Assembly (NCBI GenBank): GCA_016930485.1
Contig: JAFGGP010000030.1
Coordinates: 66,745 to 130,744, forward strand
From: Candidatus Omnitrophota bacterium
GTDB taxonomy: Bacteria > Omnitrophota > Gorgyraeia > JAFGGP01
Length of the DNA stretch: 64,000 bases
Direction: 5' to 3'
The position numbers and the translations under genes were made by a program. The notes under the pieces were generated by a model. That model was not told the origin of the DNA, searched no databases, and saw nothing but the letters and a program-made list of their open reading frames with translations. The number at the start of each line of letters is the position of its first letter. Positions within the stretch are counted from its first letter, which is position 1. Shown here one piece after another: positions 12,289 through 55,433 of the stretch.

Positions 12289-12298
12289 GTATATTTTG

Positions 12299-12488
12299 GT
12301 TCTACGGGTTCACGGGTTATTCGAGTTGCTCGGGTTCAAAAATAGTTCTTCGGGTTGCACGGGTTCGGCGGGTTCTTCGGGTTCGTTTTTGTTATCAAAT
12401 TATTTTTCAACCCGTGAACTCGCTAACTCGCTAACTCGTGAACTATTTTCCACTCGCGAACACGCGAACTCGCAGAACACGCGAACCA
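12299..12488. repeat. Word-array inverted repeat, CGGGTT/CGAGTT family (largest copy)
   Basis: Left side has ~9 words containing CG[GA]GTT at an 8-9 bp period. AT loop at 12386-12408. Right side has ~9 words AAC[CTA]CGNN at an 8-bp period. gttcacgggtt (12308-12318) is an exact complement of aacccgtgaac (12409-12419). Confidence 0.85.
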
Positions 12489-12498
12489 GTTTTAAAGG

Positions 12499-15751: not shown

Positions 15752-17725
15752 TTACTTAAAGAAAAGCGGGGCAAACACCAATGATACAATCGCCATCAGC
15801 TTAATCAGAATATTCATCGACGGACCCGAGGTATCTTTGAACGGGTCACCGACGGTATCGCCTACAACAGCCGCGGCATGGGTCGGGGTCCCCTTACCGC
15901 CGAGATTGCCTTCTTCGATCCATTTTTTCGCGTTGTCCCATGCCGCCCCGGTATTTGCCATCATAATACCCATCAGGACGCCACAGGTCGTGGCGCCGGC
16001 CAGAAACCCGCCGAGCGCCTCTTTTCCAATACCAAATCCTATCGCAAGCGGGGCAATAACCGCAAGAAGTCCCGGAAGAATCATCTCAACAAGAGCCCCT
16101 TTGGTTACGATATCAATGCACCGGGCCGTGTCCGGCTTTGCCTTCCCTTCGAGGAGCCCGGCAATCTCCCGAAACTGTCTTCGTATCTCATGAACCATCT
16201 TATGTGCCGCGCGTCCGACCGCCTTCATGGTCAAGGCCACGATAACAAATGGCATCAGCCCCCCCAGTAAAAGCCCGATAATAGTTGCCGGATCGGTCAG
16301 GCTGATTGTCTCAAGCCGTGCGGTCCGCTGATATGCGGAAAAAAGCGCCAGTGCCGTAAGCGCGGCGGATCCGATGGCAAACCCCTTGCCGATTGCAGCG
16401 GTTGTATTACCCAGCGCATCCAGTTTATCGGTAATCTTCCTGATCTGCGGTGGCTGATGTGACATCTCGGCAATGCCGCCGGCATTGTCCGCAATCGGGC
16501 CGTATGAATCGGTAGACATAACCAGACCGATAGTCGAAAGCATCCCGACCGCCGATATGGCGATCCCGTAGAGCCCTGCAAAGTAATAGGAAACATAGAT
16601 GGAAAGGCAGATCGTCAGGAGCGGCATAATCGAACTCTCAAAACCGACCGCAAGCCCGGTAATAATAGTCGTCGCAGGACCTGATTCTGCGCTGGCGGCA
16701 ATAGTCTTTACCGGCGGGCCTGAGGTAAAAAATTCGCTCTCAACCCCGATCAAGATCCCTGCGATGAGACCGCTTAATACCGCCCAGAATACACCGACGC
16801 CGCCCAGCATCTGTGTTACCGCAACATAGGCGCCGATGATGAAAAGGACTCCGCTGATATACGTGGCATACCGCAGGGCCGACTGCGGATTGATTCGTTT
16901 TAAGATACCCATCGAGGAGACGCCGATGACCGAGGCGATCAATCCGATGGTAATCAAAACCAGCGGAAGCGCCATCAATGTAAGCGGGGTAAGCATCGTT
17001 GCGCCGATCGCCATTGTCGCAACAACCGACCCGACATAGGATTCAAAAAGATCGGCACCCATACCTGCCGTATCACCGACGTTGTCGCCTACATTGTCGG
17101 CGATCACCCCGGGATTGCGGGGATCGTCCTCGGGGATACCGGCCTCAACCTTGCCAACCAGGTCTGCCCCCACATCGGCGCTCTTAGTATAGATGCCGCC
17201 GCCGACACGGGCAAAGAGCGCAATGGAGCTGGCACCCATTGCGAATCCGTTAATAATAAATGGTTCCTTGGTAAAGAGGCAGGCAACGGCGATACCCAAC
17301 AGTCCGAGCGCGGCAACAGAAATACCCATAACAGAACCGCCGCGAAACGCCACATCGAGCGCCTCCGGGGCGCCGCCGGTCACGGCCGCCTGACAGGCGC
17401 GATTACTGGAACGCGTCGCTGCCTGCATCCCGATAAATCCGGCAAGCATCGAACATCCGGCACCGGCAAGATAGGCCACTGCGGTCCACATTCCCAAAAA
17501 CATAAACAGGACAACAAAAACCAGGACGACAAAAATACCGATAATCCGGTATTCGCGCGCTAAAAATACCATAGCGCCCTTATGCACCTCCTCGGCAATC
17601 TCCTGCATCACCTCGGATCCGGCGTGCCGGCGCTTTACCGTCACAAAGGTCCAGAGGGCAAAAAGCATTCCCAGCACACCAACCCCTACAGGCACCAACT
17701 CCATCATGTTCATACAATCCTCCAC
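15752..17725 (-). CDS. hppA: Membrane-bound ion-translocating pyrophosphatase
   Basis: Motifs [28 protein letters not shown] and [21 protein letters not shown] has Ala rather than Lys at the position known to separate K+-dependent from K+-independent enzymes, so I predict the K+-dependent type. Several in-frame ATGs at the N-terminus. Confidence 0.95.
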
Positions 17726-17733
17726 TTTTTAAA

Positions 17734-17958
17734 GTCACAAGACACATGACACAAGTCACATGTGAAAACTCAAAATAAAAAAAGTGAATAACAGCATATC
17801 ATTCTTCAAAAAAAGTCGGGAAGTCTTCGCCCCCTCATCCAGCGAGCCGCTCGAATCATAACAATCGTTCTCAATTATGTTTCTATGCGCTAACTGACAA
17901 TTCGCCATACAGAGTTTTTTGGGATTTTGTTTTTTGTTCTTACTTGTGACATGTGTCT
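17734..17958. repeat. Nested element: GWCACAN arms outside, A-rich AAATCAA-type arms inside, ~125-bp unique core
   Basis: Left arm gtcacaa gacacat gacacaa gtcacat gtg (17734-17764). Right arm cttgtgacatgtgtc (17943-17957) complements it at 14 of 15 positions. Inner arms are aaaactcaaaataaaaaaag and gagttttttgggattttgttttttg. Lies in the hppA upstream region. Confidence 0.8.
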
Positions 17959-18034
17959 ATACTAAGGTGTAATTGCTGCCTATTGTAGCAAAAAAAAATA
18001 ATTTAACAAGTTATTTTCAAGTTCCTGAATATAT

Positions 18035-18115: not shown

Positions 18116-19759
18116 TTATCGAATAACGATGACTGGATCGTCAAACGGCGGATTTTCCTCAATAACCGTCCATTGCCCCTCGGGGTGCACAACAATCTGA
18201 CATTCGATATAATGGATTTTGTCTTGATATTGTAATATCACCAGTCTCGTCATAACACCAACTAAGCCATCAGGCGTTATATCTTCAGAACCAACGATCG
18301 AGATGTCTTCTTTATCCACGCCAAGGGCGCAAGCAAGGTAGGTACGGGCGGTGAGTTCTGCCATGATTGGATCATGGTTTGGTATTTTTCTTACCGCTGT
18401 CCATTGTGCACCAAAATGGCTGCCAAGGTGGCACTCGATATAATGGACGGTGTCTTGATATTGCAGCACGACTACCCGCATGCTGAGTCCAGCCATACCG
18501 TAAGGGGTTATATCTTCAGAATCTCTGACTGTGATATCGCCTCTATCCACCCCTAGCACATTAGCCAGGTAGCGGCGGGCCGTAAGCTCTGCTATGAAGG
18601 GGTTGTAGGCTGAAATCTCCCGCGTAACAGTCCACTGCGCACCTGGATAAACGCCGATCTTGCATTCGATATAATGAACGGCACCTTGATATTCCAGTGT
18701 AATTACCCTTGTCATAGCACCAAGCAGGCCGCGAGGTGTCACGTCTTCGGAGTCGGTGACCCTGATATCACCTTTGTCAACCCCTAGCGCATCCGCAAGA
18801 TAGGCGCGGGCAGTCAGCCCTGCTATAAGCGGGTCGGATGGTGAGATTTCCCGGATAGCCTTCCATGGCGCATTACGCCTGTCGGTGGCACGCTGACACT
18901 CAATATAGTAGGTTTTACCTTGATATTCCAACAGTACAAGCCTTGTCATGACACCGGTTACTGTCATAACAAGACCGTTCATGGATAGAAACGTTAGATT
19001 TTCGGAACCGATAATCGTAATATCTTTCTTCTTCACACCGAGTTTATCAGCAAGGTAATCACGGGCCGCGAGCTCTGCAGGATGTCTCTCTATCTTTGGT
19101 TCTGGTTTTGGGTTGCGCTCGGGGCCCTGTCTTTGCTGTTTGACAAAACAGCTGCCGTCCCGCTCTATCCAGCCACCGGAACCGTTCGACGTGCCGTAGT
19201 ACAGATCCTTGCCAACCTTGAATGTCACAGTATAGGATTGCAACACAACATTGAGCACTGCATAATTTCCTATAGGCCAATGCGTAAGAGTGCCCGTGCT
19301 GAGATTGGTAAGTGCGATCTCATCGACCGAAATTCCTAATTGTTCGGCCAGTTTTTCTTTCCCGTCCTGGATAACCGCCATGGCAATCTCTCGAAACGCT
19401 TCATAGGTAGGTTTGGGAATATAGGTCCAGACGCCCTTGTTGTATGCCTCCTTGAGTATTTCTTCAATATCTTCTTCGCCCTCTGTTTTGCGCCTGCTAA
19501 ACGGTGATGGTTGTTCTCTATGCTTGTTCCTCATTGCCTCTATATGTTTACGTTTCTCTACCGCGCGGTTTAGTATCGCGTCCTGGCCCAATACATCCCC
19601 TACACTTTGCAGATTATCCCCCGGCTTTCCTTCGCCTGTTTGGGGCTTCGGCGCAGGCGGCGCTGCCCAGGCAAGCTGACTGCATATAAAAAGAATGATA
19701 AGGTTAAGCGTGATTGCCCGAATGGAGAATGCCCTATTGAATGTGTGATACGGTACCAT
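18116..19759 (-). CDS. Secreted protein with four tandem ~77-85 aa PepSY-like repeats
   Basis: ORF 18116..19828. Start set at MVPYHTF (ATG 19757-19759), which has AAGGAGG upstream. Signal peptide ...ICSQLAWA. Four repeats of the form AELTAR.YLA..LGVD+.DI.V..SEDITP.G....MTRV..L.YQ...HYIEC. Confidence 0.7.
   Translation of the reverse strand: MVPYHTFNRAFSIRAITLNLIILFICSQLAWAAPPAPKPQTGEGKPGDNLQSVGDVLGQDAILNRAVEKRKHIEAMRNKHREQPSPFSRRKTEGEEDIEEILKEAYNKGVWTYIPKPTYEAFREIAMAVIQDGKEKLAEQLGISVDEIALTNLSTGTLTHWPIGNYAVLNVVLQSYTVTFKVGKDLYYGTSNGSGGWIERDGSCFVKQQRQGPERNPKPEPKIERHPAELAARDYLADKLGVKKKDITIIGSENLTFLSMNGLVMTVTGVMTRLVLLEYQGKTYYIECQRATDRRNAPWKAIREISPSDPLIAGLTARAYLADALGVDKGDIRVTDSEDVTPRGLLGAMTRVITLEYQGAVHYIECKIGVYPGAQWTVTREISAYNPFIAELTARRYLANVLGVDRGDITVRDSEDITPYGMAGLSMRVVVLQYQDTVHYIECHLGSHFGAQWTAVRKIPNHDPIMAELTARTYLACALGVDKEDISIVGSEDITPDGLVGVMTRLVILQYQDKIHYIECQIVVHPEGQWTVIEENPPFDDPVIVIR
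18119..19078 (-). repeat. Four tandem coding repeats (231-255 bp each) inside the secreted-protein gene
   Basis: Unit boundaries from the protein alignment: 18824-19078, 18593-18823, 18362-18592, 18119-18361. Conserved blocks LTAR.YLA, LGVD, SEDITP, HYIEC, QWT. Confidence 0.8.
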
Positions 19760-20046
19760 GTGAAACCTCCTTGTTGTTATATGCTGCAGCGCCTTTTCAT
19801 CTTTTGTTCTCCTGCTAATGCAAACCAAGCTACCGGTTCATCTTCGGTAGCCTGGCCATCCTTTTTTCTGCGCTATCTAAGGATCCGTAACTTTGCGTCC
19901 CACATTCTCATGTGGTTTGCCTTTTCGTGATGTCCCTATATATACAACCCCGGCCGTTAGAAAACATTACATTATTTTTTTGGTCTTTTACAGGATCGGC
20001 TGGTAACTGCATAAATTTAAAGGAGTTATAGAATCATCGGCGGGAT

Positions 20047-24121: not shown

Positions 24122-24212
24122 GAGTTCACGAGTTCTGCGAGTTCTTTTTTAGCGTGTAGCGATTATAATTCTTTGTGTCACTACACGCTAGTCGCTAAAC
24201 GCTAACCGCTAG
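24122..24212. repeat. CGAGTT-family fragment followed by a TAGCGNN-family hairpin
   Basis: gagttcacgagttctgcgagttc (24122-24144), then ttagcgtgtagcgatta ... tacacgctagtcgctaaacgctaaccgctag. ttagcgtgtagc is identical to 55245-55256. Confidence 0.8.
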
Positions 24213-24312
24213 AAACCTCCAGTTATCGGCCCCTGTCCGTGTAACGGCGACGGAGGCCGATAAGCCGGAAGCATATTAACAAGTACTCGATTTACAGTTT
24301 GGTTATTTTATA

Positions 24313-24360
24313 GTGACGCATTTTGTGATACTGCATGTGACATGTGTCTTGTGTCATGTG
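24313..24360. repeat. Word array, GTGAC/GTCAC family, abutting the nrdJ stop codon
   Basis: gtgacgc attttgtgata ctgcatgtgacatgtgtcttgtgtcatgtg. gtgacatgtgtct (24337-24349) is identical to 17946-17958. Confidence 0.8.
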
Positions 24361-26679
24361 TTAAGAGCACTTGGAATAACCGCAGGCATGACATACGGCA
24401 CAGCCCTCTTCATGCCACAGGGCAGCGCCGCAATCAGGGCAGACGCCGATTACATTCGCTCCTCCTCTTGGCCCCTTAACCGGCATCAGTTCTTCTTCGT
24501 GCATGGTATGGGGAGAATGCCTTTCTTCTATCTTGGGGACCTCGGCACCTTCCGCATTCAGCCGTTTTTCGATAACACGCGCTATGGCATCGGCGCATGA
24601 AAAGATCCGCAGCCCCCTGAGCCACGTCGGTTCAGGACATCTGATTCCCCTGAGCTGCTCCATGATGGCCTCCAGCGGAATGCCGCTGCGCAGGGCCAGT
24701 GATACGAGCCGGCCGATCGCCTCAAGCTGGCTTGCCGCGCATCCGCCGGCCTTGCCCATCTGCGAAAACATCTCAAACGGATTGCGCTGTTCGTCTTCAT
24801 TAATGGTCACATACAGACTGCCGCAGCCGGTGCCTATTTTGGTGGTGGTGCCGTGTATGACTTCTGGTCTCGGCCTTCTGCGGAATACATGGGTCTCTTT
24901 GTCGTGGTCTTCCTGGAGGCCCTGCATCTCTCCCGAGGCGCCTCCGGTCTTCTTAATCCCGACTGTCAGCACCTGTTCCTCGCGGCTTCCGTCTCGATAA
25001 ATGGTGATGCCCTTACACCCCATATCGTACGCCGCCAGGTATGCCTCTCTCACTTCTTCTTTTGTGGCACTATTGGGAAAATTGATCGTCTTTGAGACCG
25101 CATCGTCGGTATACTCCTGAAAGGTAGCCTGCATCTTGACATGCCAGTACGGCGTAATGTCCCGCGCAACCACAAACACCTTTTTAATCTCTTCGGGAAT
25201 TTCAGCAATGCCCTGAATGCTTCCGTCCTGGGCAATCCGCCGCATCAGCTCCTCGGAATAAAAACCCCGGTCGCGCGCGCATTTTTCAAAAGCCGTGTTC
25301 ACATAATAAAGATCCGTCCCATCCATAACCGTCTTGGTAAAGACAAGAGAAAAAAGCGGTTCTATACCGCTGGAACAGTCGGCGATCATGCTGATGGTCC
25401 CGGTCGGCGCAATGGTGATAACGGTAGCGTTCCTGAGTTTCGGGCCACCCGGTATGTTGTACACGCTGTGTTCGAAGTTCGGGAATACCCCGCGCTCTTC
25501 GGCGAGTTCTGCCGAGGCTCGCATAGCCTCCTCATAAATAAATCCCATGACCTCTTTGGCAATCTTATTGCCCTCTTCCGAGTCATACGGTATCCGCAGC
25601 TGATAGAGCATGTCCGCAAACCCCATAACACCCAGGCCGATCTTGCGATTGCCGTGGACCATCTCCTCGATCTGCGGCAGAGGGTACTTATTCACTTCGA
25701 TAACATTGTCGAGAAAACGCACTGCCTCTTTTACTACCCTGGCAAGTCTGCCGTAATCAATTCTTTCGCTGGTCACCATGTGAGCCAGATTAATCGAACC
25801 GAGATTACATGATTCGTAGGGCAGGAGCGGTTGTTCACCGCACGGATTGGTCGCCTCGATCTCACCGAGCCTGGGCGTCGGGTTATCCTGGTTTACCCGA
25901 TCGATAAAAATGATGCCGGGATCGCCGTTTTTCCACGCGTTCTCTACCATTCTGTCAAAGACCTCCTGCGCCCTGCGTCTCCCCTCCACCTTTTTAGTCT
26001 GGGGATTCATGAGGCAATACTCATCATCGGTCTTTACCCGTTCCATAAAGTCGTTGGTCACCGCGACGGAGATATTAAAATTCGTGATGTCCTTTTCGTT
26101 TTGCTTACAGGTAATAAACTCCTCGATATCAGGGTGATCGACGCGCAGGATGCCCATATTCGCCCCTCTGCGCGTACCCCCCTGTTTCACCGCTTCGGTG
26201 GCCGAGTTAAATACTTTCAAAAACGATACCGGGCCGCTTGCAACACCACTGGTCGATCTGACGATACTGTTTTTCGGTCTCAGTCTGGAAAAAGAAAACC
26301 CCGTTCCCCCGCCTGACTTATGTATGAGTGCAGTATTCTTGATTGCCTCAAAAATACTCTCCATAGAATCGTCAACCGGTAACACAAAACAGGCGCTCAA
26401 CTGTCCCAGCTCTCTACCGGCATTCATCAACGTCGGTGAATTCGGAAGAAAATCCAACCGAGTCATTGCGTCGAAAAACTTCTCTTCCCACTCGGCCTGC
26501 TGTGCATCGGTAGCATTGAATTTTTTTTCTGCGCTGGCGATGTGACGCGCAACACGACGAAACATCTCTTCAGGGGTCTCGGCCGGACAACCCTCCTTAT
26601 TCTTAATAAGATAACGTCGTTCTAACACCCTTTTGGCATTTTCGGACAAAACAAGTCGGCAAGAACGGGTTGGTGACAT
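24361..26679 (-). CDS. nrdJ: Class II (adenosylcobalamin-dependent) ribonucleotide reductase
   Basis: Active-site block NPCGEQPLLPYESCNLGSINL and IAPTGTIS. No beta-subunit gene nearby. C-terminal CPDCG...CAVCHACG zinc ribbon. ATG at 26677-26679 with AGGAGG 5 nt upstream; the ORF track starts at a GTG at 26685. Confidence 0.9.
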   Translation of the reverse strand: MSPTRSCRLVLSENAKRVLERRYLIKNKEGCPAETPEEMFRRVARHIASAEKKFNATDAQQAEWEEKFFDAMTRLDFLPNSPTLMNAGRELGQLSACFVLPVDDSMESIFEAIKNTALIHKSGGGTGFSFSRLRPKNSIVRSTSGVASGPVSFLKVFNSATEAVKQGGTRRGANMGILRVDHPDIEEFITCKQNEKDITNFNISVAVTNDFMERVKTDDEYCLMNPQTKKVEGRRRAQEVFDRMVENAWKNGDPGIIFIDRVNQDNPTPRLGEIEATNPCGEQPLLPYESCNLGSINLAHMVTSERIDYGRLARVVKEAVRFLDNVIEVNKYPLPQIEEMVHGNRKIGLGVMGFADMLYQLRIPYDSEEGNKIAKEVMGFIYEEAMRASAELAEERGVFPNFEHSVYNIPGGPKLRNATVITIAPTGTISMIADCSSGIEPLFSLVFTKTVMDGTDLYYVNTAFEKCARDRGFYSEELMRRIAQDGSIQGIAEIPEEIKKVFVVARDITPYWHVKMQATFQEYTDDAVSKTINFPNSATKEEVREAYLAAYDMGCKGITIYRDGSREEQVLTVGIKKTGGASGEMQGLQEDHDKETHVFRRRPRPEVIHGTTTKIGTGCGSLYVTINEDEQRNPFEMFSQMGKAGGCAASQLEAIGRLVSLALRSGIPLEAIMEQLRGIRCPEPTWLRGLRIFSCADAIARVIEKRLNAEGAEVPKIEERHSPHTMHEEELMPVKGPRGGANVIGVCPDCGAALWHEEGCAVCHACGYSKCS

Positions 26680-26746
26680 CAACACCTCCTCTCATCGTGG
26701 GTAATTATCTCGTGGGTTGTGCTAATTGTGCAGGAGAAGGAAAGTA

Positions 26747-27697: not shown

Positions 27698-29563
27698 CTA
27701 TATCCTGATCCTCTCCAGCGAAACAATGATATCCTCCGCCTCGTTGACACTCTGGGTAAACCGGCCCCTGTCCTGCTTCACATCGGTAAACCGCATAAGG
27801 TCGCACTCCTCTAACAGTTTCTTTGTCTTGTGAATTAGCTCTTCAGAAACTCCCCGTCCCCGTAGCGTGTCGCAGAGTTCTATCGTGGTCATACCGGAGG
27901 CGGAGAGATTAAGTCTGTCAGCGATATACTCGGTTATCGCCCGGTACACCTCGCGGTATACGGCCTCTCCCGAATCCTGCTCTTTGAGTCTCTGCAGGGC
28001 CTTCTTTAGTCGTTTACGCGCAACCTTATGCGCCCGATGCAGCCGCGCATACCGCACATCCTGCGTCAATTTCCTGCGGTGCCGGGCATCGACAAAACAG
28101 ATAAACAGTATAAGCGGGCTCAAAAGATGGGCATATATAAAAAGCCTGTTTCTGTAAAGCGGTGTCTGTAACCCAGTCATCTGTCTTAATTCGGTCTTGA
28201 TATAACGAATATCCGTGGCAATAAGTGCAATCTCTTTTTTCTCAGTGTATGTTAGACTGGGCACAACCGGGCCTGTCGCCTGAAGGGCCTCCTGCGGTTT
28301 CACGGTTACGTTAATCGCGATCGGCTGTGTCGTAATTGTGCCATACTCTTTCGTCCTAGGGTTAAAAAAATGATAGGTGAGCGGCTCGAGTGTTGCCGTT
28401 CCGGCGCTCTTTGGAATTAATACCTTTTGAAAGGTTTTTTTGCCCCCTACTACATAATTATTTTTTGTGACCTCCTCGGAGCTCCCTGAATCGTAGACTT
28501 TACACATGTCCGGAACCGATACAACCGGATCCGAGAGGGTCCTTATATTGCCCCGACCTTCGATGCTTATAGTAAGTGTTACGGGATCGCCTTCCTGGAC
28601 TTCGAGTCTGTCGGCCTTGACCGACATGTCATACTGACCTACCGCCCCTGCAAAATCCCGGGGCCTGCCTTGTTCGGGAAGCGCCTTTACCTCAAGGGTG
28701 ATCGGGTCGGTGGTAAGAATAACCGGTTGACCCCGGCGAAAAATACTCATAGGATCCCGGTCGAATATATCAAAGGCGCTTCTTCTAAAAAAATCCTCTA
28801 TACGGTCAACACTTGCCTCAAGACGTGCAGGACCAATAACGTACTGGCCGGGCGCCGTCGGAAAGAGGGCGGTCTTTATCTCGGTAACCAGGTACCGTCT
28901 CCCGTTAATAACCTTATAGTACTTATTTTGAGGAGGCATATCCTCTGCCCAGAAACCAGTCGTGGAAGGCGGCGTATAAACTGGATTGTCAAACAGTTGA
29001 ACCGCCTGATAGAAAGCAAAGGTCAACGTCACCTGTTCATTGACATACGGCGTCAGATTGTCGACGTAGGTCTCTATAAACATCTCCTGTGCCCTGCCCT
29101 GTTCCTGGTCGCCGGTCTGTGGCAGGGACGGCTGCGATGACGGTCCTCTGGAAGACGGTGCCTGCGCATACCCTTGAGGGCCGCTGTCTGTCACCTCGAT
29201 CTCTAACGGCTCTGTTGAATACGTCTGCCCGTCATACGTAACACGGATGGGGCCTATCGTTTTCTTGCCGGTGGCGTTCGGCACGAGTATATAGGTAAAC
29301 GTCACCTGAGCAAATACCTGGGTATTGTGCACTGAGATATTCTGCGCGCGTCCCGAAGAGTAGGCGGTAAAATCGGCAAGGGGAGGAAACTGCGGCTCCG
29401 GAATCCTGCCCGTAGCCCCGGAGATAACTACGGTAAGCGTCACCGTCTCATTAATGGTCATCCTGTCTCTATCGAGAGAGGCCGCTATGGAGATATCGGC
29501 GGCAGAGGCCACTCCTGTGAACAGCCATAGACCGTAGACCGTAGACCATAGACCATAGACCAT
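27698..29563 (-). CDS. batD: BatD-like oxygen-tolerance protein
   Basis: ORF 27698..29632. The likely start, MVYGLWSTVYGLWLFTGVASA (ATG 29561-29563), gives a signal peptide. Large extracytoplasmic region, TM helix and C-terminal ECDLMRF block, as in BatD. Confidence 0.75.
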   Translation of the reverse strand: MVYGLWSTVYGLWLFTGVASAADISIAASLDRDRMTINETVTLTVVISGATGRIPEPQFPPLADFTAYSSGRAQNISVHNTQVFAQVTFTYILVPNATGKKTIGPIRVTYDGQTYSTEPLEIEVTDSGPQGYAQAPSSRGPSSQPSLPQTGDQEQGRAQEMFIETYVDNLTPYVNEQVTLTFAFYQAVQLFDNPVYTPPSTTGFWAEDMPPQNKYYKVINGRRYLVTEIKTALFPTAPGQYVIGPARLEASVDRIEDFFRRSAFDIFDRDPMSIFRRGQPVILTTDPITLEVKALPEQGRPRDFAGAVGQYDMSVKADRLEVQEGDPVTLTISIEGRGNIRTLSDPVVSVPDMCKVYDSGSSEEVTKNNYVVGGKKTFQKVLIPKSAGTATLEPLTYHFFNPRTKEYGTITTQPIAINVTVKPQEALQATGPVVPSLTYTEKKEIALIATDIRYIKTELRQMTGLQTPLYRNRLFIYAHLLSPLILFICFVDARHRRKLTQDVRYARLHRAHKVARKRLKKALQRLKEQDSGEAVYREVYRAITEYIADRLNLSASGMTTIELCDTLRGRGVSEELIHKTKKLLEECDLMRFTDVKQDRGRFTQSVNEAEDIIVSLERIRI

Positions 29564-29788
29564 CCGCCTCCGGCTGATGAAAAAAGTCTTCGGTTGATTG
29601 CCTGTGGTTTGTGGTTTGAAAAAATATACCATGGTTTATGTTTGAATCTGTTAAGGAGTAAAGTTTTTTATTTCACGACTCGCTCTGCGCTCGCTTGAAA
29701 AGTATGACCTTTGAGTTCTTCGATAGTCGGGCGCCTGCCCTCCGTAGCCTTGGCGAAGGAGGGATCTTCGGTCTATGGTCTATGGTCT
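29526..29788. repeat. AGACCRT heptamer array and its perfect 19-bp inverted partner, flanking the batC-batD junction
   Basis: Five tandem AGACCRT heptamers (with flanking partial words) at 29526-29563. agaccatagaccatagacc (29543-29561) is the exact reverse complement of ggtctatggtctatggtct (29770-29788). Confidence 0.9.
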
Positions 29789-29794
29789 TGTATA

Positions 29795-30658
29795 TTACCA
29801 GTCTTTTTCAACCCTGATGGCGTCCCTGGAAATAGTGGTTTTCTGTAACTCCTTTAACTGGTCTTTCTCCGCCTGACCCATGGCATTCAGTATTCGCTCG
29901 GCATCCTCTTTTGTCATCTCACTGCCTTGACCCTGTTTTTGTTGTGAAGAGGCTTGAGCCGCTTCTTTTTCTTCTCCGCTACCCTCTTCATTTTTATTGC
30001 CTTCTTCTTCCTCGCCAACTTCCCCGGAAGATTCTTCGGATCCATTCTCCTTTTCTTCCTCATGAACGGCCTGCGTCTTTTCTTTTTCCCCTTTTTCTCC
30101 CTGCTTTTCTTCCGACTGATTCGCTCCCTCTTCCTTATGTTGTGTCCCGCTCTGTGCACCTTGAGCCTGCTGCTGTTGTTGCGACATCCCTGTGCCTTCT
30201 TTTTTCTCGGCAGACTCCTTTAACTTTTTCTGTATCATCTCTATATTATACTTCGCGTCTTCGTCATCATCCCGCACCTCGAGACACTTTTTATAGTTTT
30301 CCAGGGCCTCCAGTAATTTTCCGGACCGGTAATTCGTATTTCCCAAATTATAATAGGTATCAGCCTGAAGCGCTATATCTTCGGTTCCGAGGGCCTGGGT
30401 ATATTCCTTTTCGGCCTCGTCAAACTTACCCTGCCGGTACAGTGCGTTTCCTATATTGTAGTGAATCTCGCTGGATGCCGGTGAGTCTATCTGTGCATCC
30501 CTGTAGAGCCTGAGCGCTTCATCGCTCTCTCCCCGTTCCAGGAGCCCGTTGGCCTCTTTGACCTTCGAGCCTACAGAGGCGGCCTCTGCAGTAACACAGC
30601 ACAGTATCGCTATAACCGTTATACCACAAAGGGTAAAAAGACGCCCTGTAGCCTTCAT
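29795..30658 (-). CDS. batC: BatC-like TPR protein with acidic low-complexity tail
   Basis: Start MKATGRLF overlaps the batB stop (ATGA). Signal peptide, TPR repeats (YNIGNALYRQGKF, YNLGNTNYRSGK), then an E/K/G/Q-rich low-complexity region. Confidence 0.7.
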   Translation of the reverse strand: MKATGRLFTLCGITVIAILCCVTAEAASVGSKVKEANGLLERGESDEALRLYRDAQIDSPASSEIHYNIGNALYRQGKFDEAEKEYTQALGTEDIALQADTYYNLGNTNYRSGKLLEALENYKKCLEVRDDDEDAKYNIEMIQKKLKESAEKKEGTGMSQQQQQAQGAQSGTQHKEEGANQSEEKQGEKGEKEKTQAVHEEEKENGSEESSGEVGEEEEGNKNEEGSGEEKEAAQASSQQKQGQGSEMTKEDAERILNAMGQAEKDQLKELQKTTISRDAIRVEKDW

Positions 30659-31677
30659 GATACCGCCCCCTTTTTGCGCAAGCTTACCTTCGGAACTCCG
30701 CACATCTCGATCGCCAACAGTAACCATGAGAGGATCAGGGGGATCTTAAACCGCTCCTCATAGCGTGTATAGACCCGGTCGCTCAGCTCCTTTTTTTCCA
30801 TGCTGGATATGTCGTCGTAAATGCTGTCAAGCTCGAGCTGCCCCGCAGTAGACCGGTAGTATTTCCCGTTGGTTGTTAACGCGATTTTCTGCAGGGTATA
30901 TTCGTCGAGCTTGCTCACAACAGGCGTCCCGTCGGCATCCTTCTTGTGTCCGATCACATTCCCAGCCTCATCTCTTATAGGAATAGGCTCTCCGGAAGGC
31001 GTCCCAATACCGATGGTGTATATCTTAATACCCTCTCTCTTCGCCTCCTCCGCCTCATTGATCGCGTCCCCCGTATGACTCTCGCCGTCGGTCATAAGAA
31101 TAAACACCTTATGTTTTCTCTCTTTCTTGATAAAGGCATCCCGTGCCGCCTGCACCGCCTTTGCCACCGAGGTACCGCCCACCGGGATGTACCCCGCGTC
31201 TATCTGCTGGACAAACATGCTGCATGCCTCATAATCCAGCGTCAGGGGACACTGCACAAAGCTCTCGCCGGCAAACAGTACAATGCCGATCCTGTCCCCT
31301 TTCAGTTTTTTTATCAGGCCTGAGACCTCCCGCTTGGCAGCAGCCAGGCGCGTCGGCTTTACATCCTCGGTAAGCATACTATCGGATACATCGATGGCGA
31401 CAATAATGTCGATCCCGCGTCTCTTCTCTATGCCTAATGTGGCGCCGAACTGCGGTCTGGCTATCGCCACAACCAGAAAAGCGCACGCGCAGACAATTAG
31501 GCCCGATCGCACCTTCTGTCGTGTGCGCAACGGGCGGGGAAACAGTCTCTCAGCGCCCGCCGAATCGGCAAAACGCAGCCTGAGCCGTTTCTTTACCTGA
31601 AAGACATAGACATAAAAAATAACGAGCGCCGGAACCAGTGCTAGTAGATTTAAAAAATGAATCGCTCCCCACTTCAT
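30655..31677 (-). CDS. batB: BatB-like von Willebrand factor A protein
   Basis: N-terminal TM helices, a vWA MIDAS-like DVSDSM and a C-terminal TM helix. Confidence 0.8.
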   Translation of the reverse strand: MKWGAIHFLNLLALVPALVIFYVYVFQVKKRLRLRFADSAGAERLFPRPLRTRQKVRSGLIVCACAFLVVAIARPQFGATLGIEKRRGIDIIVAIDVSDSMLTEDVKPTRLAAAKREVSGLIKKLKGDRIGIVLFAGESFVQCPLTLDYEACSMFVQQIDAGYIPVGGTSVAKAVQAARDAFIKKERKHKVFILMTDGESHTGDAINEAEEAKREGIKIYTIGIGTPSGEPIPIRDEAGNVIGHKKDADGTPVVSKLDEYTLQKIALTTNGKYYRSTAGQLELDSIYDDISSMEKKELSDRVYTRYEERFKIPLILSWLLLAIEMCGVPKVSLRKKGAVS

Positions 31678-31695
31678 AGTTAACCTTTCGTATTA

Positions 31696-32043
31696 GTCAC
31701 ATGTCGCCTGTCACAGGTCACCAGTTTTTAAATCAAAAATCAAGGTGCAAAAATCAAAATGGCATATCAAAATGTAAAAATTAATAAAGTCACCTGGTCG
31801 CCGGTCACATGTCACAAGTAAAAACCGCAAACCTAATTTTGAACCTTTTGTGTCATTCCGGGCTTGGCCCGGAATCCATTATTTCGCTTTTTCCCTTTCG
31901 GTGGCTTCCCGCTTCCGCGGGAATGACACAGGATTTGTTCATTTTGAATTTTACATTTGCCTGCCCTGAGTTGCATCGAAGGGTCATTTTGATATTTGAT
32001 GTTTGATATTTAATTTTACTTACCCGTGATTTTGTGACTTTGT
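31696..32043. repeat. 348-bp composite element between batA and batB (GTCAC arrays, AAATCAA/TTTGATA arrays, central ATTCCGGG-type hairpins)
   Basis: GTCAC arrays at 31696-31722 and 31789-31818 flank an AAATCAA array. atatcaaaatg (31764-31774) is an exact complement of cattttgatat (31985-31995). tgtgtcattcc (31849-31859) is an exact complement of ggaatgacaca (31920-31930). Local hairpins are attccggg-cttgg-cccggaat and ttcccgc-ttcc-gcgggaa. gtgattttgtgacttt sits at the right end. Confidence 0.85.
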
Positions 32044-33036
32044 CTAGGGTAATACCCGCAACGCGGTCCCGGATAGAACAATCTCGCTCAGTAATAGCAG
32101 CAGCGCCGGGATCAGAACCGTATTTGCCCGTTCGTCATACTCGACGTACTCCCGGGTCTGAATCTCCGTCTTTTCCAGTCTGTTAATATGTTCGTATATC
32201 TCGCCGAGTCCCTTTTCATCCTTTGCCCTGAAGTACAACCCGCCTGTGATCCGGGCGATTTCGTCCAGCGTCTTTTCATCGATCTCTGTTGCCATGCGCA
32301 CATACTGCCTGCCAAAAATCGGATGGTCAACCGGATAGAGTGCGCCGCCCGGCGTACCTGCGCCGATCGTATATATCTTGATGCCGAACGTCTTGGCAAC
32401 CCGCGCCGCGGTAATCGGGTCGATCTCGCCCTGATTGTTCACGCCGTCGGTAAGCAAAATAATGACCTTGCTCTTTGCGGTCGAGTCCTTCAGGCGATTC
32501 ACCGCGGTGGCGATCGCCGTACCGATGGCCGTGCCGTCGGCGATCATGCCGATGGTCACCTCGTCGGTAAGACGCTTGAGAATGCCGTAATCCAGGGTTA
32601 ACGGGCACTGTGTTATGGCGTACCGCGCAAAGACAACCATGCCGACGCGGTCGTGCTGCCGTTCATCGATAAATTTCTTGATCACCTCTTTTGCCGCACC
32701 GAGCCGGTTCTGCGGCTTAAAGTCTTCGGCCTTCATGCTGCCCGATATGTCAAGGGTCAGGATAATATCAACACCCTCGGTTATCAGCTCTTCCTCGGTT
32801 GTGCCGTACTGTGGCCGTGAAAGCCCGACAACCATAAGGGTTACAACGGCGACGCGCAACACAAAAGGAACGATACTTAAGCGCCTGCGCAGCGAGGGTG
32901 GGATCCGCCCAAAAGGGGCGGTCTGCGAATAGGTCACGCCGGCACGGTTCTGTGAAAACTGCCGGCGAAATATTACTATCAGCACCAGCCCTGCGAGCAG
33001 CAACAGATAGAGAGGATCGGCCAAACGCATATTCAT
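32044..33036 (-). CDS. batA: BatA-like von Willebrand factor A protein
   Basis: N-terminal TM helices, MIDAS DISGSM and a C-terminal TM helix. Start overlaps the upstream gene by 4 nt. Confidence 0.8.
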   Translation of the reverse strand: MNMRLADPLYLLLLAGLVLIVIFRRQFSQNRAGVTYSQTAPFGRIPPSLRRRLSIVPFVLRVAVVTLMVVGLSRPQYGTTEEELITEGVDIILTLDISGSMKAEDFKPQNRLGAAKEVIKKFIDERQHDRVGMVVFARYAITQCPLTLDYGILKRLTDEVTIGMIADGTAIGTAIATAVNRLKDSTAKSKVIILLTDGVNNQGEIDPITAARVAKTFGIKIYTIGAGTPGGALYPVDHPIFGRQYVRMATEIDEKTLDEIARITGGLYFRAKDEKGLGEIYEHINRLEKTEIQTREYVEYDERANTVLIPALLLLLSEIVLSGTALRVLP

Positions 33037-36686: not shown

Positions 36687-36690
36687 TTGT

Positions 36691-36792
36691 GAGTGCTCAA
36701 GTTCTTCGGGTTCTACGAGTTCACGAGTTAAAAAAATGATTCGATAACAAAATCGAACCCGAGTAACCCGCGAACTGGCGAACCCGTGAACT
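36691..36792. repeat. Word-array hairpin, CGGGTT/CGAGTT family
   Basis: gagtgctcaagttcttcgggttctacgagttcacgagtt, A-rich loop, then cgaacccgagtaacccgcgaactggcgaacccgtgaact. Lies between moxR and DUF58. Confidence 0.8.
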
Positions 36793-36794
36793 AT

Positions 36795-37775
36795 TTACGG
36801 TACCTCCACCCCGTCAAAGACGCGGCGGGCAATGTCCTCGCCGGTCAGCTCCTCCGCCTCTGCCTCATAGGTCGGGATAATCCTGTGCCTGAGCACATCC
36901 AGTCCGACCGCCTTCACGTCCTCGGGAGTCACATAGCCCCGTCCGCGCAAAAAGGCGTGGGCGCGCGAGGCGATGTTCAAATAAATGCAGGCGCGGGGCG
37001 AGGCCCCGTATGAAATCAATGATTTAATATCAAGGTTGTGCTTCTCCGGCTCCCGTGTCGCGAAGACAATATCGACGATATACTCCTTCACCTTATCGTC
37101 GATATAGACCTGTCGCACCACCTCCCTGGCGTGGAGAATATCCGCCGGGGTTACAACCGGACTGGGCCGGGGTTCATCCTTTCCGGCCATCCGCTCCATG
37201 ATCTCTTTTTCCTCATCACGGGTAGGATAATCGATCTTGAGTTTTAATAAAAACCGATCTACCTGTGCCTCGGGCAGCGGATACGTACCCTCCTGTTCTA
37301 TCGGGTTCTGGGTAGCAAGCACCAGAAAGGGCGCCTCGAGCCGGAAGGTCTCCTGGCCGATCGTCACCTGCCGCTCCTGCATCGCCTCAAGGAGTGCGCT
37401 CTGCACCTTTGCCGGGGCACGGTTAATTTCGTCCGCCAGAATAATATTGGCAAAGATCGGGCCTTTCTTGGTAGAAAATGACCCCTGCTGGGGATTGTAG
37501 ACAAGGGTCCCCACGAGGTCCGCCGGCAATAGATCCGGTGTAAACTGTATGCGCTGAAACTTTGCCTGGATGCATCCCGCCAGTGTCCTGACAGAAAGCG
37601 TCTTGGCGAGTCCGGGTACGCCCTCCAGCAAAATATGCCCGTCCGCCAGAAGACCGATCAGGAGCCGCTCGACCATATACTTCTGACCGACGATGATCTT
37701 CGACATCTCATTCAGGATATTGCGGACAAACAGACTTTCTTTTTCAACAAGCTCGGTAATCTGCTTCAGTTCCAT
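36795..37775 (-). CDS. moxR: MoxR-family AAA+ ATPase
   Basis: Walker A GVPGLAKT, Walker B ILADEINRA, length ~326 aa. Confidence 0.9.
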   Translation of the reverse strand: MELKQITELVEKESLFVRNILNEMSKIIVGQKYMVERLLIGLLADGHILLEGVPGLAKTLSVRTLAGCIQAKFQRIQFTPDLLPADLVGTLVYNPQQGSFSTKKGPIFANIILADEINRAPAKVQSALLEAMQERQVTIGQETFRLEAPFLVLATQNPIEQEGTYPLPEAQVDRFLLKLKIDYPTRDEEKEIMERMAGKDEPRPSPVVTPADILHAREVVRQVYIDDKVKEYIVDIVFATREPEKHNLDIKSLISYGASPRACIYLNIASRAHAFLRGRGYVTPEDVKAVGLDVLRHRIIPTYEAEAEELTGEDIARRVFDGVEVP

Positions 37776-42234: not shown

Positions 42235-42597
42235 TTATGTAATCACTATTTTTTTAGGCTGGGTCTTCTCTGACTTAGTCAGCGTGACGGTGAGGATCCC
42301 GTTTTCATAATCGGCGTTTATTTTCCCCTTATCTACCTCGTCGCCTAAGATAAATGCCCTTCTATATTCAAGGAGGCAGCGCTCTCTCATAATAGGTGTA
42401 TACCCCTTGGGCACCTCACATTCCTTCTGACTCCCCTTTATAGTCAGTTCATCCCCTATTAATTCAACCTGTATATCTTCTTTCTGTAAGCCGGCCATCT
42501 CGGCCTTCAGGACAACCTCTTTTTCCGTCTCTTGTATCGTTACGTAGGGTGTAACACTTTTCTTTATTTCTTCTCTGTTCTGGTTAACAAAAGTCAT
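42235..42597 (-). CDS. Hsp20 / alpha-crystallin small heat-shock protein
   Basis: 120 aa. Alpha-crystallin pattern (AEMAGLQKEDIQVEL...GILTVTLTK). Confidence 0.85.
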   Translation of the reverse strand: MTFVNQNREEIKKSVTPYVTIQETEKEVVLKAEMAGLQKEDIQVELIGDELTIKGSQKECEVPKGYTPIMRERCLLEYRRAFILGDEVDKGKINADYENGILTVTLTKSEKTQPKKIVIT

Positions 42598-43299: not shown

Positions 43300-43587
43300 T
43301 CATGGGGTGAACCCCTCTTTCTCCAACGGTGTTTTTTCAAGTCTCAGAATATATTTAATCCCGCGCGTATTGACTCCGTATTCTTTAATGAGTCCACGGA
43401 TATGAAGCAGCGTCATAACGTCCTTCTTGCAATAAAGACGGGTTTTTCCCTGAGAACGTTTAGGACATACCAGACCATCCTTATCCAGCTGACGTAAGGT
43501 CCATTCCGGCAGATTTACCAGCTTGCTTACTACACTGATGATATATACCGGCTCACACGGATCGATCTCAAAGGTTAAATACTCCAT
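43300..43587 (-). CDS. MerR-family heat-shock regulator, HspR-like
   Basis: The ORF track starts at a TTG at 43608. I prefer the ATG at 43585-43587 (MEYLTFEID), which has GGGGGAGAAAGG upstream and lies downstream of the predicted promoter. HTH pattern YIISVVSKLVNLPEWTLRQLDKDGLVCPKRSQGKTRLY resembles HspR. Confidence 0.7.
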   Translation of the reverse strand: MEYLTFEIDPCEPVYIISVVSKLVNLPEWTLRQLDKDGLVCPKRSQGKTRLYCKKDVMTLLHIRGLIKEYGVNTRGIKYILRLEKTPLEKEGFTP

Positions 43588-43612
43588 GCCTTTCTCCCCC
43601 TTCTTCAATGTA

Positions 43613-43641
43613 AGTCTACATCAAAAAAATATATCTGTCAA
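43613..43641 (-). promoter_or_regulatory. Sigma-70-type promoter of the HspR-like gene
   Basis: Minus strand TTGACA-17 nt-TAGACT. The -10 box ends ~25 nt upstream of ATG 43587. Confidence 0.6.
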
Positions 43642-43820
43642 GATTTTTTATTGAAAAATTTATACTATATAAACTTTTTAGTTAATTTATTTAATTTCTT
43701 AACTACAATTAAATCAACAAATTATGTATAAAAATTAAAATTTTCTAATTTAGAAATATTAAAAAAATCTTATTTTTATTTATATTATTTTAGATTATCT
43801 AATAGATATCGTGTCTCCTG

Positions 43821-44733: not shown

Positions 44734-44929
44734 TTTCACATTGTCCGCCAAATAGCGAGACCTCGCCCGCCTCGTCATCTTTGATGACGGGCGAGACGGG
44801 AAATGTGGGCTGCCCTTCCCCACATTGAAATGTGGGCTACTTGGACACAGAACGGCATAGTGTGTGTTCATTTTGAACTTCACATTGTCCTTTTGCATTT
44901 TACTTTTTGATATTTGATTTTATTAATTG
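44734..44929. repeat. Composite element downstream of the exonuclease gene, sharing a terminus with the batA-batB element
   Basis: ttcacattgtcc occurs twice (44734, 44879). AAATGTGGGC/CCCACATT hairpins are present. tgttcattttgaacttcacattgtcc (44865-44890) matches 31936-31961 at 22 of 26 positions. ttttgatatttgat (44905-44918) is identical to 31987-32000. Confidence 0.8.
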
Positions 44930-44937
44930 ATTATACG

Positions 44938-54405: not shown

Positions 54406-54594
54406 CATTTGAACCTTCAGCTGTCAGCTATCAGCTGTCAGCTTTTTAAAAGACGGTTAGTTTTTATACATGTGTAACTTTAATATATATAATATGTTAT
54501 ATTATATCGATTACTGCGTATGCTGACATGTTCCCTGCCCCATCAACAACTTTGAATCCGAAAGACTGAATGCTGATAACTGAAGGCCGAAAGC
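54406..54594. repeat. NTCAGCN-family inverted arms flanking a ~120-bp AT-rich core upstream of the marR operon
   Basis: Left arm ccttcagctgtcagctatcagctgtcagc (54414-54442). Right arm gactgaatgctgataactgaaggccgaaagc (54564-54594). Each arm is preceded by a tttgaa word. Confidence 0.8.
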
Positions 54595-55231: not shown

Positions 55232-55244
55232 TTATATTCCTTTT

Positions 55245-55433
55245 CTTAGCGTGTAGCCGATTAGCGGCTAGCGTATGGTGAATAAATCCTAAACTCTACC
55301 TCATTCTCGTAATTAGTAACTCGCTTCGCTTTCTCAAACGGCTTTTAAAGTGTTAGTTACTAGTTACTGATTACTAGTTACGTTTTTCTTTGTGGGTTTG
55401 TCTAATCGCTAAACGCTATCCGCTAGACGCTAA
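55245..55433. repeat. Nested element: TAGCGNN arms outside, TAGTTAC-type arms inside
   Basis: Outer arms ttagcgtgtagccgattagcggctagcgtatgg (55245-55277) and ctaatcgctaaacgctatccgctagacgctaac (55401-55433). Inner arms cgtaattagtaact and gttagttactagttactgattactagttacg. Confidence 0.85.

Follow-up and report, generated by a model that had tools for sequence, protein, structure and literature searches.

Why do batA and batB, two vWA-domain genes that normally lie close together in a Bat operon, stand 366 nt apart in a Candidatus Omnitrophota bacterium? The question concerns a stretch of 64,000 nt of contig JAFGGP010000030.1 (hereafter the window), in which the interval between the batA stop codon and the batB start codon, on the minus strand, runs from 31678 to 32043, as against junctions of 17–78 nt in four Omnitrophota relatives. 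An earlier reading of the same letters (the original prediction) had described a composite, strongly self-complementary spacer inside the operon between the two genes, and all the repeats that it listed were found where it had placed them. The element does occupy 31696–32043 (348 bp), as proposed, while the true intergenic interval is the longer 366 nt.

The explanation favoured here, with a probability of roughly 65%, is that two kinds of non-coding repeat built up at an operon junction to form the spacer, which is not a dedicated regulatory element. The first layer is made of heptameric simple-sequence arrays in inverted order, which fill almost every intergenic gap in the window and likewise in the loci of relatives. 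The second, judged by its sequence, is an 82-bp inverted doublet of the widespread NTS/SRM hairpin family, which is recognised by Ssn nucleases as single-stranded DNA. The spacer is expanded relative to those of its relatives, and its composition and the family relations of its parts mark it as a combination of two repeat kinds that are known, though neither has so far been described from this phylum.

The central hairpin doublet and its family

The centre of the spacer holds two hairpins in inverted orientation, with the following features.

31849..31930, no strand assigned: 82-bp inverted doublet of GTCATTCC NTS/SRM-like hairpins, bounded by TGTGTCATTCC and GGAATGACACA (inverted repeat I14)
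31851..31878, plus strand: hairpin H1, TGTCATTCCGGGCTTGGCCCGGAATCCA, loop TTG (inverted repeat I19)
31901..31928, minus strand: hairpin H2, TGTCATTCCCGCGGAAGCGGGAAGCCAC, one stem mismatch (from the sequence)

The bounding words form the exact 11-nt inverted repeat expected at the centre (31849–59 and 31920–30). Two tight hairpins, with stems of 8 and 7 bp, had also been predicted; the second stem is indeed 7 bp and perfect (31906–12 with 31917–23), while the first reaches 9 bp, not 8 (31855–63 with 31867–75), and closes on a 3-nt loop with the inner stem GGGC-TTG-GCCC. H2 can be written as ATTCCCGC-GGAA-GCGGGAAG, that is, the dRS3 core with its last base altered.

This resemblance leads to the Neisseria dRS3/NTS repeat, for which the consensus CGTCATTCCCGCGMAVGCGGGAATCYRG has been given. 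SsnA, a single-domain GIY-YIG nuclease, binds NTS, and cuts it, in single-stranded DNA only and has no interaction with its RNA version; NTS has been generalised to Ssn-related motifs (SRM), which flank ssn genes in several phyla, among which Omnitrophota are not mentioned (PMC11893778). Read on the minus strand from 31928 to 31901, H2 is identical to the NTS consensus at 24 of 28 bases; the stem of H1 is a different one. Both arms carry TGTCAT directly before the stem, which corresponds to the conserved, oriented 5' flank GTCAT (HGTCWY) of NTS/SRM, and both have the GC-rich semi-palindrome ATTCC(C)...(G)GGAAT with a short loop (the dRS3 core being ATTCCC-N8-GGGAAT). As in NTS, dRS3 and SRM, the hairpin is followed by an ATCC-type tail and the whole is intergenic. 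At the DNA level, each hairpin would present one forward Ssn-type site per strand.

Taken by itself, the 11-mer inverted repeat is not significant in the window, as 21 of 100 shuffled sequences gave at least two matches, and a looser search for GTCWY followed by a hairpin raised only the two known arms above background (6 matches, with 2.7 expected). The reality of the repeat rests on its occurrence elsewhere. By scanning one genome per species for TGTGTCATTCC-N45-75-GGAATGACACA, 79 loci were found across many phyla, where about 2 were expected by chance. Their hosts include Legionella, Coxiellaceae, Rickettsia, Chitinophagales, Saprospiraceae, Abditibacteriaceae, Patescibacteria, Chloroflexota and Acidobacteriota, with up to about 20 loci coming from one metagenome-assembled genome (MAG). 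All 79 are palindromic doublets of 67–97 bp with the arm layout TGTGTC-ATTCC-stem-loop-stem-GGAAT-CC, and the arm's own hairpin is kept in 107 of 160 arms despite 19 different inner stems, the commonest being ATTCCCGC...GCGGGAAT. Viral contigs scanned with the doublet pattern gave no match.

Metagenomes gave a similar picture. The 24-nt core of H1 occurs in at least 120 metagenome contigs, and the loop is identical in 65 of the 130 matches listed. Of 116 distinct H1-type sites among the matches listed, 43 form inverted doublets, usually heterotypic and with a median length of 78 nt, and six H1-type doublets have an NTS-type ATTCCCGC partner arm, as in the spacer. The link to the nuclease family comes from the same contigs: in four of them (L091, L102, L157 and L186), small single-domain GIY-YIG open reading frames (ORFs; PF01541) lie 0–41 nt from hairpins with the identical H1 core. 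Only six GIY-YIG ORFs of that kind occur in 655 kb of contigs, and these four are among them. PF01541 genes were also found 0.4–1.3 kb from the doublets of three genome loci (L008, L020 and L063). A query with a GIY-YIG protein adjoining an H1-type hairpin opened onto a huge family; few of the best 120 matches were named (Patescibacteria, Flavobacteriaceae, sphingomonads) and none was labelled Omnitrophota.

The manner in which such doublets spread was considered from their edges. The 11-bp inverted termini suggested a miniature inverted-repeat transposable element (MITE) derived from a DDE transposon, and this candidate was rejected: neither here nor at the 79 loci is the doublet flanked by a target-site duplication, and the palindrome often runs on into the flanks, which speaks against a DDE-type MITE and fits a REP-like or single-stranded-DNA-hairpin-based spread. 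An 8-nt direct repeat, ATTTTGAA (family D12), found near both ends of the doublet, was likewise tried as a target-site duplication and dropped, given that it does not abut the termini. The REP, BIME and REPIN elements of proteobacteria are similar in being inverted doublets of short imperfect palindromes of about 70–100 nt, placed between genes and within operons with no target duplication. Unlike them, the arms in the spacer have no GTAG-type head, and the associated family in other contigs is GIY-YIG. No RAYT gene (IS200/IS605 TnpA-like) was noticed in the window, where no profile search for RAYT was made.

Doublets in seven of the loci and contigs (L005, L022, L037, L045, L064, L071 and L091) are often nested in, or preceded by, further partial GTCATTCC half-sites. 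L005 has an outer TGTGTCATTGCAGGGTGA...TCACCCTGCAATGACACA shell around its doublet, and L091 has three successive CGTCATTC(C/T)GG starts ahead of its GIY-YIG gene. Such nesting suggests repeated insertion at the same hairpins.

The surroundings of the doublet were compared as well. In the spacer, its centre (about 31890) falls within about 10–40 nt of the points about which the outer inverted arrays are symmetric, which places it near the apex of a larger palindrome. A Terriglobia MAG (L040, 1100–1300) has the same architecture: a stop codon, TCAGTTC heptads, a doublet, the inverse heptads and the next gene. Heptad arrays flanking GTCATTCC doublets were seen in unrelated phyla, at that site, at L061 (1154–1310) and in L079, and the Chitinophagales, Saprospiraceae and Terriglobia loci are also rich in inverted heptad arrays. 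At the 79 loci, 6 arrays are found no more than 100 nt from a doublet, compared with about 2 expected genome-wide, an association no stronger than two intergenic features predict.

Heptad arrays in the spacer, the window and related genomes

The doublet is embedded in the following arrays.

31696..31723, no strand assigned: heptad array A1, GTCACAT GTCGCCT GTCACAG GTCACCA (repeat listing)
31730..31783, no strand assigned: A-rich array of AAATCAA type, two 27-nt half-blocks (repeat family D2; Tandem Repeats Finder, period 7, 4.3 copies)
31789..31817, no strand assigned: heptad array A2, GTCACCTG GTCGCCG GTCACAT GTCACAA (repeat family D3)
31933..31959, no strand assigned: T-rich heptad-like block of TTTGAAT type, complementary to part of the A-rich array (inverted repeats I4–I6)
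31984..32016, no strand assigned: TTTGATA heptad array, inverse complement of the AAATCAA array (inverted repeats I1, I10 and I12; Tandem Repeats Finder, period 7, 3.4 copies)
32026..32041, no strand assigned: GTGAT/GTGAC (GTGAY) remnants, complementary to A1 (inverted repeats I9 and I21)

The GTCAC arrays bracket the AAATCAA array as had been described (31696–31723 and 31789–31817 around 31730–31783). They are direct copies of each other, identical at 20 of 23 positions (87%; family D3), and A2, which has no inverted partner on the right side, looks like a local duplication of A1. The mirror-image TTTGATA and GTGAC words on the right are also present: the TTTGATA and AAATCAA arrays pair over 32 nt with 78% complementarity (I1), including the exact 11-nt complement 31764–31774 / 31985–31995 (I10), and in both the RNA and the DNA folds the GTGAY remnants at 32026–32041 close the outermost stem beside the batA stop codon. 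A T-rich block at 44863–44937 (cattttgaacttcacattg...ctttttgatatttgattttatt) is close to the right arm of the spacer, which indicates that the TTTGAAT/TTTGATA heptad type recurs elsewhere in the window.

The original prediction treated the spacer as a special element, which did not hold: nearly every intergenic region of the window is built of inverted heptad arrays, and several of these regions fold more extremely. Tandem Repeats Finder detected 20 period-7 arrays in the window, compared with 0.8 in dinucleotide shuffles; no other period has more than 6. The non-coding 12% of the window contains 14 of the 20. Most intergenic regions consist of tandem 7-nt units, often an array facing its inverse complement across an AT-rich middle. 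The units differ by locus, with dozens of heptad sequences across the intergenic sites, for example:

12289–12498: CGGGTTN / AACTCGN inverted heptads
17726–17960 and 36700–36791: other heptad-built intergenic regions
24130–24211 (within an intergenic region listed as 24130–24360): TAGCGTG / CGCTAAN inverted heptads
29525–29788: GGTCTAT / ACCATAG inverted heptads
54417–54443: CAGCTGT heptads
55232–55433 (end also given as 55435): TAGCGNN and TAGTTAC heptads, inverted pair

The gap between batC and batD is bracketed by five GGTCTAT units on the sense strand (29525–29563) facing ACCATAG units (29770–29788). The distal array lies in the BatD ORF, where it gives in-frame ATG codons and the signal-peptide-like N-terminus MVYGLWSTVYGLWLFTGVASA; this array is apparently translated, and the true start of BatD probably lies downstream of the one called at 29632.

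For the GTCAC type, a regulatory role could be argued, with the direct repeats acting as operator sites and the spacer carrying a promoter for batB to batE. With at most one mismatch, GTCACNNGTCAC has 11 matches in the window, where 1.7 are expected and none of 100 shuffles reaches 11; two GTCAC arrays stand just upstream of start codons, those of batB and of the gene ending at 17725; and GWCACAW heptads occur also in the relative L084 (5818–68). The GWCACAW heptads of A1 recur in the window at 17734–61, 17944–57, 24335–55 and 56883–96, and two of these places (24335–55 and 56883–96) are gene 3' ends. Dozens of other heptads occupy equivalent positions, which does not suit one sequence-specific regulator, and sites that follow one another every 7 nt without a gap face different sides of the helix. 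No sigma-70-like promoter was found on either strand of 31500–32200, which is weak evidence, as the Omnitrophota consensus may differ. A promoter with operators in the spacer is considered very unlikely. The GTCAC heptads were also examined as copies of the SRM 5' flank (TGTGTCA), which they resemble at 24334–61 and 56884–98, and the idea was dropped because the bases that precede GTCATT are variable among the metagenome sites.

Related genomes point to the same class of repeat with different letters. BatB is identical to a protein recorded from a Candidatus Omnitrophica MAG; the closest proteins after that are 50–56% identical, and those with names are mostly from Omnitrophota. In the four Omnitrophota relatives (L082–L085) the operon is syntenic and the batA–batB junction measures 17, 67, 78 and 64 nt, about 290–350 nt less than here. 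The unusual length was thus borne out by this comparison, while the sequence is not conserved. Three of the four junctions are heptad arrays with unrelated units (ACTTTAA; CGTGATT facing the near-complement ATTACG; ACGTTAC), and the 17-nt junction of the remaining relative has neither a heptad array nor structure. The 9-kb loci of the four relatives hold 3–5 period-7 arrays each, one of them with a GWCACAW unit. Downstream of the Bat operon, the ribonucleotide reductase gene of two relatives has intein and LAGLIDADG domains (L083, 8553–9002; L084, 8737–9002; 1201 and 1603 aa); in the window, the 774-aa ORF at 24361–26685, in the corresponding position, is much shorter.

Heptameric simple-sequence repeats are over-represented in many bacterial genomes, both between genes and within operons, and vary between relatives; the GGGAATC-type repeats of Xanthomonas and Nostoc form inverted pairs in intergenic and intra-operon gaps, and slippage has been proposed as their cause (PMC4692102). 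The arrays of the window share with this SSR/STRR class of cyanobacteria, Xanthomonas and Nostoc the tandem, over-represented 7-nt units, the mostly intergenic and partly intra-operon location, the frequent arrangement as inverted stem-loop pairs, and a length and sequence that vary between relatives. They differ in that many different heptads coexist in one genome and in that the host belongs to another phylum; moreover, the units are not G-rich, so that no G-quadruplex is expected, unlike for the GGGAATC-type arrays. Work by Mazel in 1990 and by Mrazek in 2007 is also said to bear on heptameric simple-sequence repeats, and Elhai and others reportedly described in Genome Research in 2008 small dispersed repeats nested in tandem heptamer arrays of Nostoc/Anabaena. 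The spacer would be similar to the latter in having a very small, palindromic, mobile-looking unit within heptamer arrays with the overall hairpin preserved, and different in the inserted unit, which belongs to another family, that of the GTCATTCC hairpins. A literature search found no paper linking Omnitrophota with heptad repeats.

Transcription and folding of the operon junction

The genes and signals around the spacer are as follows.

32044..33036, minus strand: batA, 330 aa, BatA N-terminal domain and vWA, upstream of the spacer (ORF list; Pfam PF07584 and PF00092)
30655..31677, minus strand: batB, 340 aa, vWA, downstream of the spacer (ORF list; Pfam PF00092)
31684..31688, minus strand: probable batB Shine-Dalgarno AAAGG, unpaired in the predicted fold (inferred from the sequence)
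31809..32006, plus strand: 65-aa ORF with ATG start, antisense to the operon, composed of repeats (ORF list)

By Pfam, the gene order on the minus strand is MoxR AAA+ (36795–37775), DUF58, a PPIase-domain protein, a DUF167/BatD-like protein, BatA, the spacer, BatB, BatC (TPR), BatD and BatE (TPR), a neighbourhood that corresponds to a complete Bat-type operon. Elsewhere in the window, a c-di-GMP-I riboswitch (RF01051; 57.6 bits, full length) lies at 19843–19931 on the minus strand, in the leader of a 570-aa ORF (18116–19828). A 176-nt intergenic stretch with 12% G+C (43609–43784) separates a MerR-family gene (43300–43608) from an unannotated 125-aa ORF, near an HSP20 gene (42235–42597).

An independent gene in the spacer, either a small RNA or the 65-aa ORF at 31809–32006 on the plus strand, would have in its favour the ATG start of that ORF and a terminator-like hairpin with a T-rich tail on the same strand (31855–31875), the sole terminator-like site in the spacer. 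The hairpin in question is H1, within the bounds of the ORF. No Pfam family matches the ORF, whose letters are those of the repeats, in agreement with the earlier remark that it is a translation of them, and it is most likely spurious. No promoter-like site accompanies it, and Rfam gave nothing for the spacer at the gathering threshold, the best relaxed match being STnc340 with 16.7 bits against a threshold of 80 (E = 9.9). Such a gene is therefore regarded as extremely improbable.

On the sense strand, the spacer has no intrinsic terminator of the type of a GC-rich stem followed by a U-tract. In the short-read assembly of SRR13394437, two short Logan contigs match either side with 100% identity and break exactly at 31879–31970, which fits repeated or palindromic k-mers and hints at k-mers shared within that metagenome.

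The structure prediction suggested along with the original description gave a single long imperfect hairpin for the whole spacer. As sense RNA it reaches −97.5 kcal/mol (z = −3.45), and none of 100 shuffles was as stable; the antisense fold has −92.2 kcal/mol, and the spacer folded as DNA has z = −2.3. The last 17 nt of the sense RNA, including the batB Shine-Dalgarno, are unpaired in the minimum-free-energy structure. Such stability is typical of the window: in 24 intergenic regions the mean folding z is −3.1 for the sense and −3.2 for the antisense strand, with the sense strand folding more stably in 13 of the 24 (Wilcoxon p = 0.52). The bat spacer (z about −3) is no outlier, and 12289–12498 (z −6 to −7.6) and 36687–36794 are more extreme. 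This strand-symmetric folding argues for palindromy at the DNA level, and no G:U signature of RNA-level selection was seen.

REP/BIME elements can stabilise upstream mRNA and, in E. coli operons, set different levels of upstream and downstream genes. By analogy, the spacer could be a selected intercistronic RNA structure, in which the stem-loop acts as a barrier to 3'–5' exonucleases or as an RNase III/E site and sets the levels of moxR–batA relative to batB–batE. A very stable sense fold, a ribosome-binding site left free, structured intergenic regions throughout the window, and the presence of structured heptad arrays at this junction in three of the four relatives, although their sequences have turned over completely, are all consistent with this proposal. 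It has to contend with the missing advantage of the sense strand, the 17-nt unstructured junction of one relative and the failure to match any Rfam family, and also with the behaviour of the central hairpin family, which acts as single-stranded DNA, its RNA version having no interaction with SsnA (PMC11893778). A selected RNA structure is judged rather unlikely. The stable processed RNA implied by the original prediction finds no backing in the Rfam search or in the comparison of sense and antisense folding, and the hairpins belong to a DNA repeat family.

Origin and meaning of the composite spacer

Under the favoured explanation, that of two accumulated repeat layers, the heptad arrays most likely arise by replication slippage together with palindrome-generating template switching. 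The doublet would have been inserted or copied by the same DNA-level process that disperses such hairpins elsewhere, which leaves no target-site duplication. Given the lack of a sense-strand terminator and of a sigma-70-like promoter in the spacer, the operon is presumably transcribed through it. In the mRNA, the whole insert is predicted to extrude as one long imperfect stem-loop, whose closing helix would place the unpaired ribosome-binding site of batB close to the stop codon of batA; this proximity may be the reason why about 300 extra nt are tolerated. Any effect on the stability or processing of the batA/batB mRNA would be a by-product, which is possible but unsupported.

Several observations weigh against this explanation. 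The strict published SRM pattern, HGTCWYN(0-2)YYVSBRHN(0-5)WNVSBRGN(0-2)RNCYNB, has no match in the window; checked by hand, it fails at one position per arm, at a G in the H2 loop where H is needed and at the R position in the H1 stem. As the pattern is a manually built search aid, this failure lowers strict membership and not family resemblance. Only one doublet occurs in the 64-kb window, as against hundreds of copies of NTS, and none in 36 kb of the four relatives, so that the hairpins are not obviously high-copy in the lineage. Neither a regular-expression search nor phmmer found a GIY-YIG/Ssn ORF in the window, unlike the ssn genes, of the cd10448 type, that accompany NTS/SRM, and the spacer further departs from that family in its heterotypic inverted doublet nested in heptad arrays and in its Omnitrophota host. 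The recurrence of heptad arrays at the same junction in diverged relatives could mean selection for structure, and both the read-through and the mRNA folding are predictions.

A broader proposal is that intergenic gaps of Omnitrophota, and apparently of some Bacteroidota, Acidobacteriota and Patescibacteria, systematically hold inverted heptad arrays as a general operon punctuation, in the form of DNA cruciforms or mRNA stem-loops, with GTCATTCC/Ssn doublets homing preferentially to the palindrome apices. It is at present quite doubtful.

If the spacer is the repeat composite described above, an odd 366-nt gap in a conserved operon would be explained with no new regulator, and the recently defined NTS/SRM–Ssn hairpin family would be extended to an Omnitrophota genome. 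Inverted, often heterotypic doublets of about 80 bp emerge as a common form of NTS/SRM repeats in genomes and metagenomes. Palindromic heptad arrays dominate the intergenic regions, break short-read assemblies, create spurious ORFs and, in one case, appear to feed a coding N-terminus, which makes them relevant to annotators and to those who assemble MAGs. Should the arrays prove functional, they would form a phylum-wide layer of operon organisation; and if the punctuation proposal is true, the Ssn nuclease family would be tied to the making or upkeep of such structures, and the combined heptamer arrays and small dispersed repeats of cyanobacteria would have a counterpart across bacteria.

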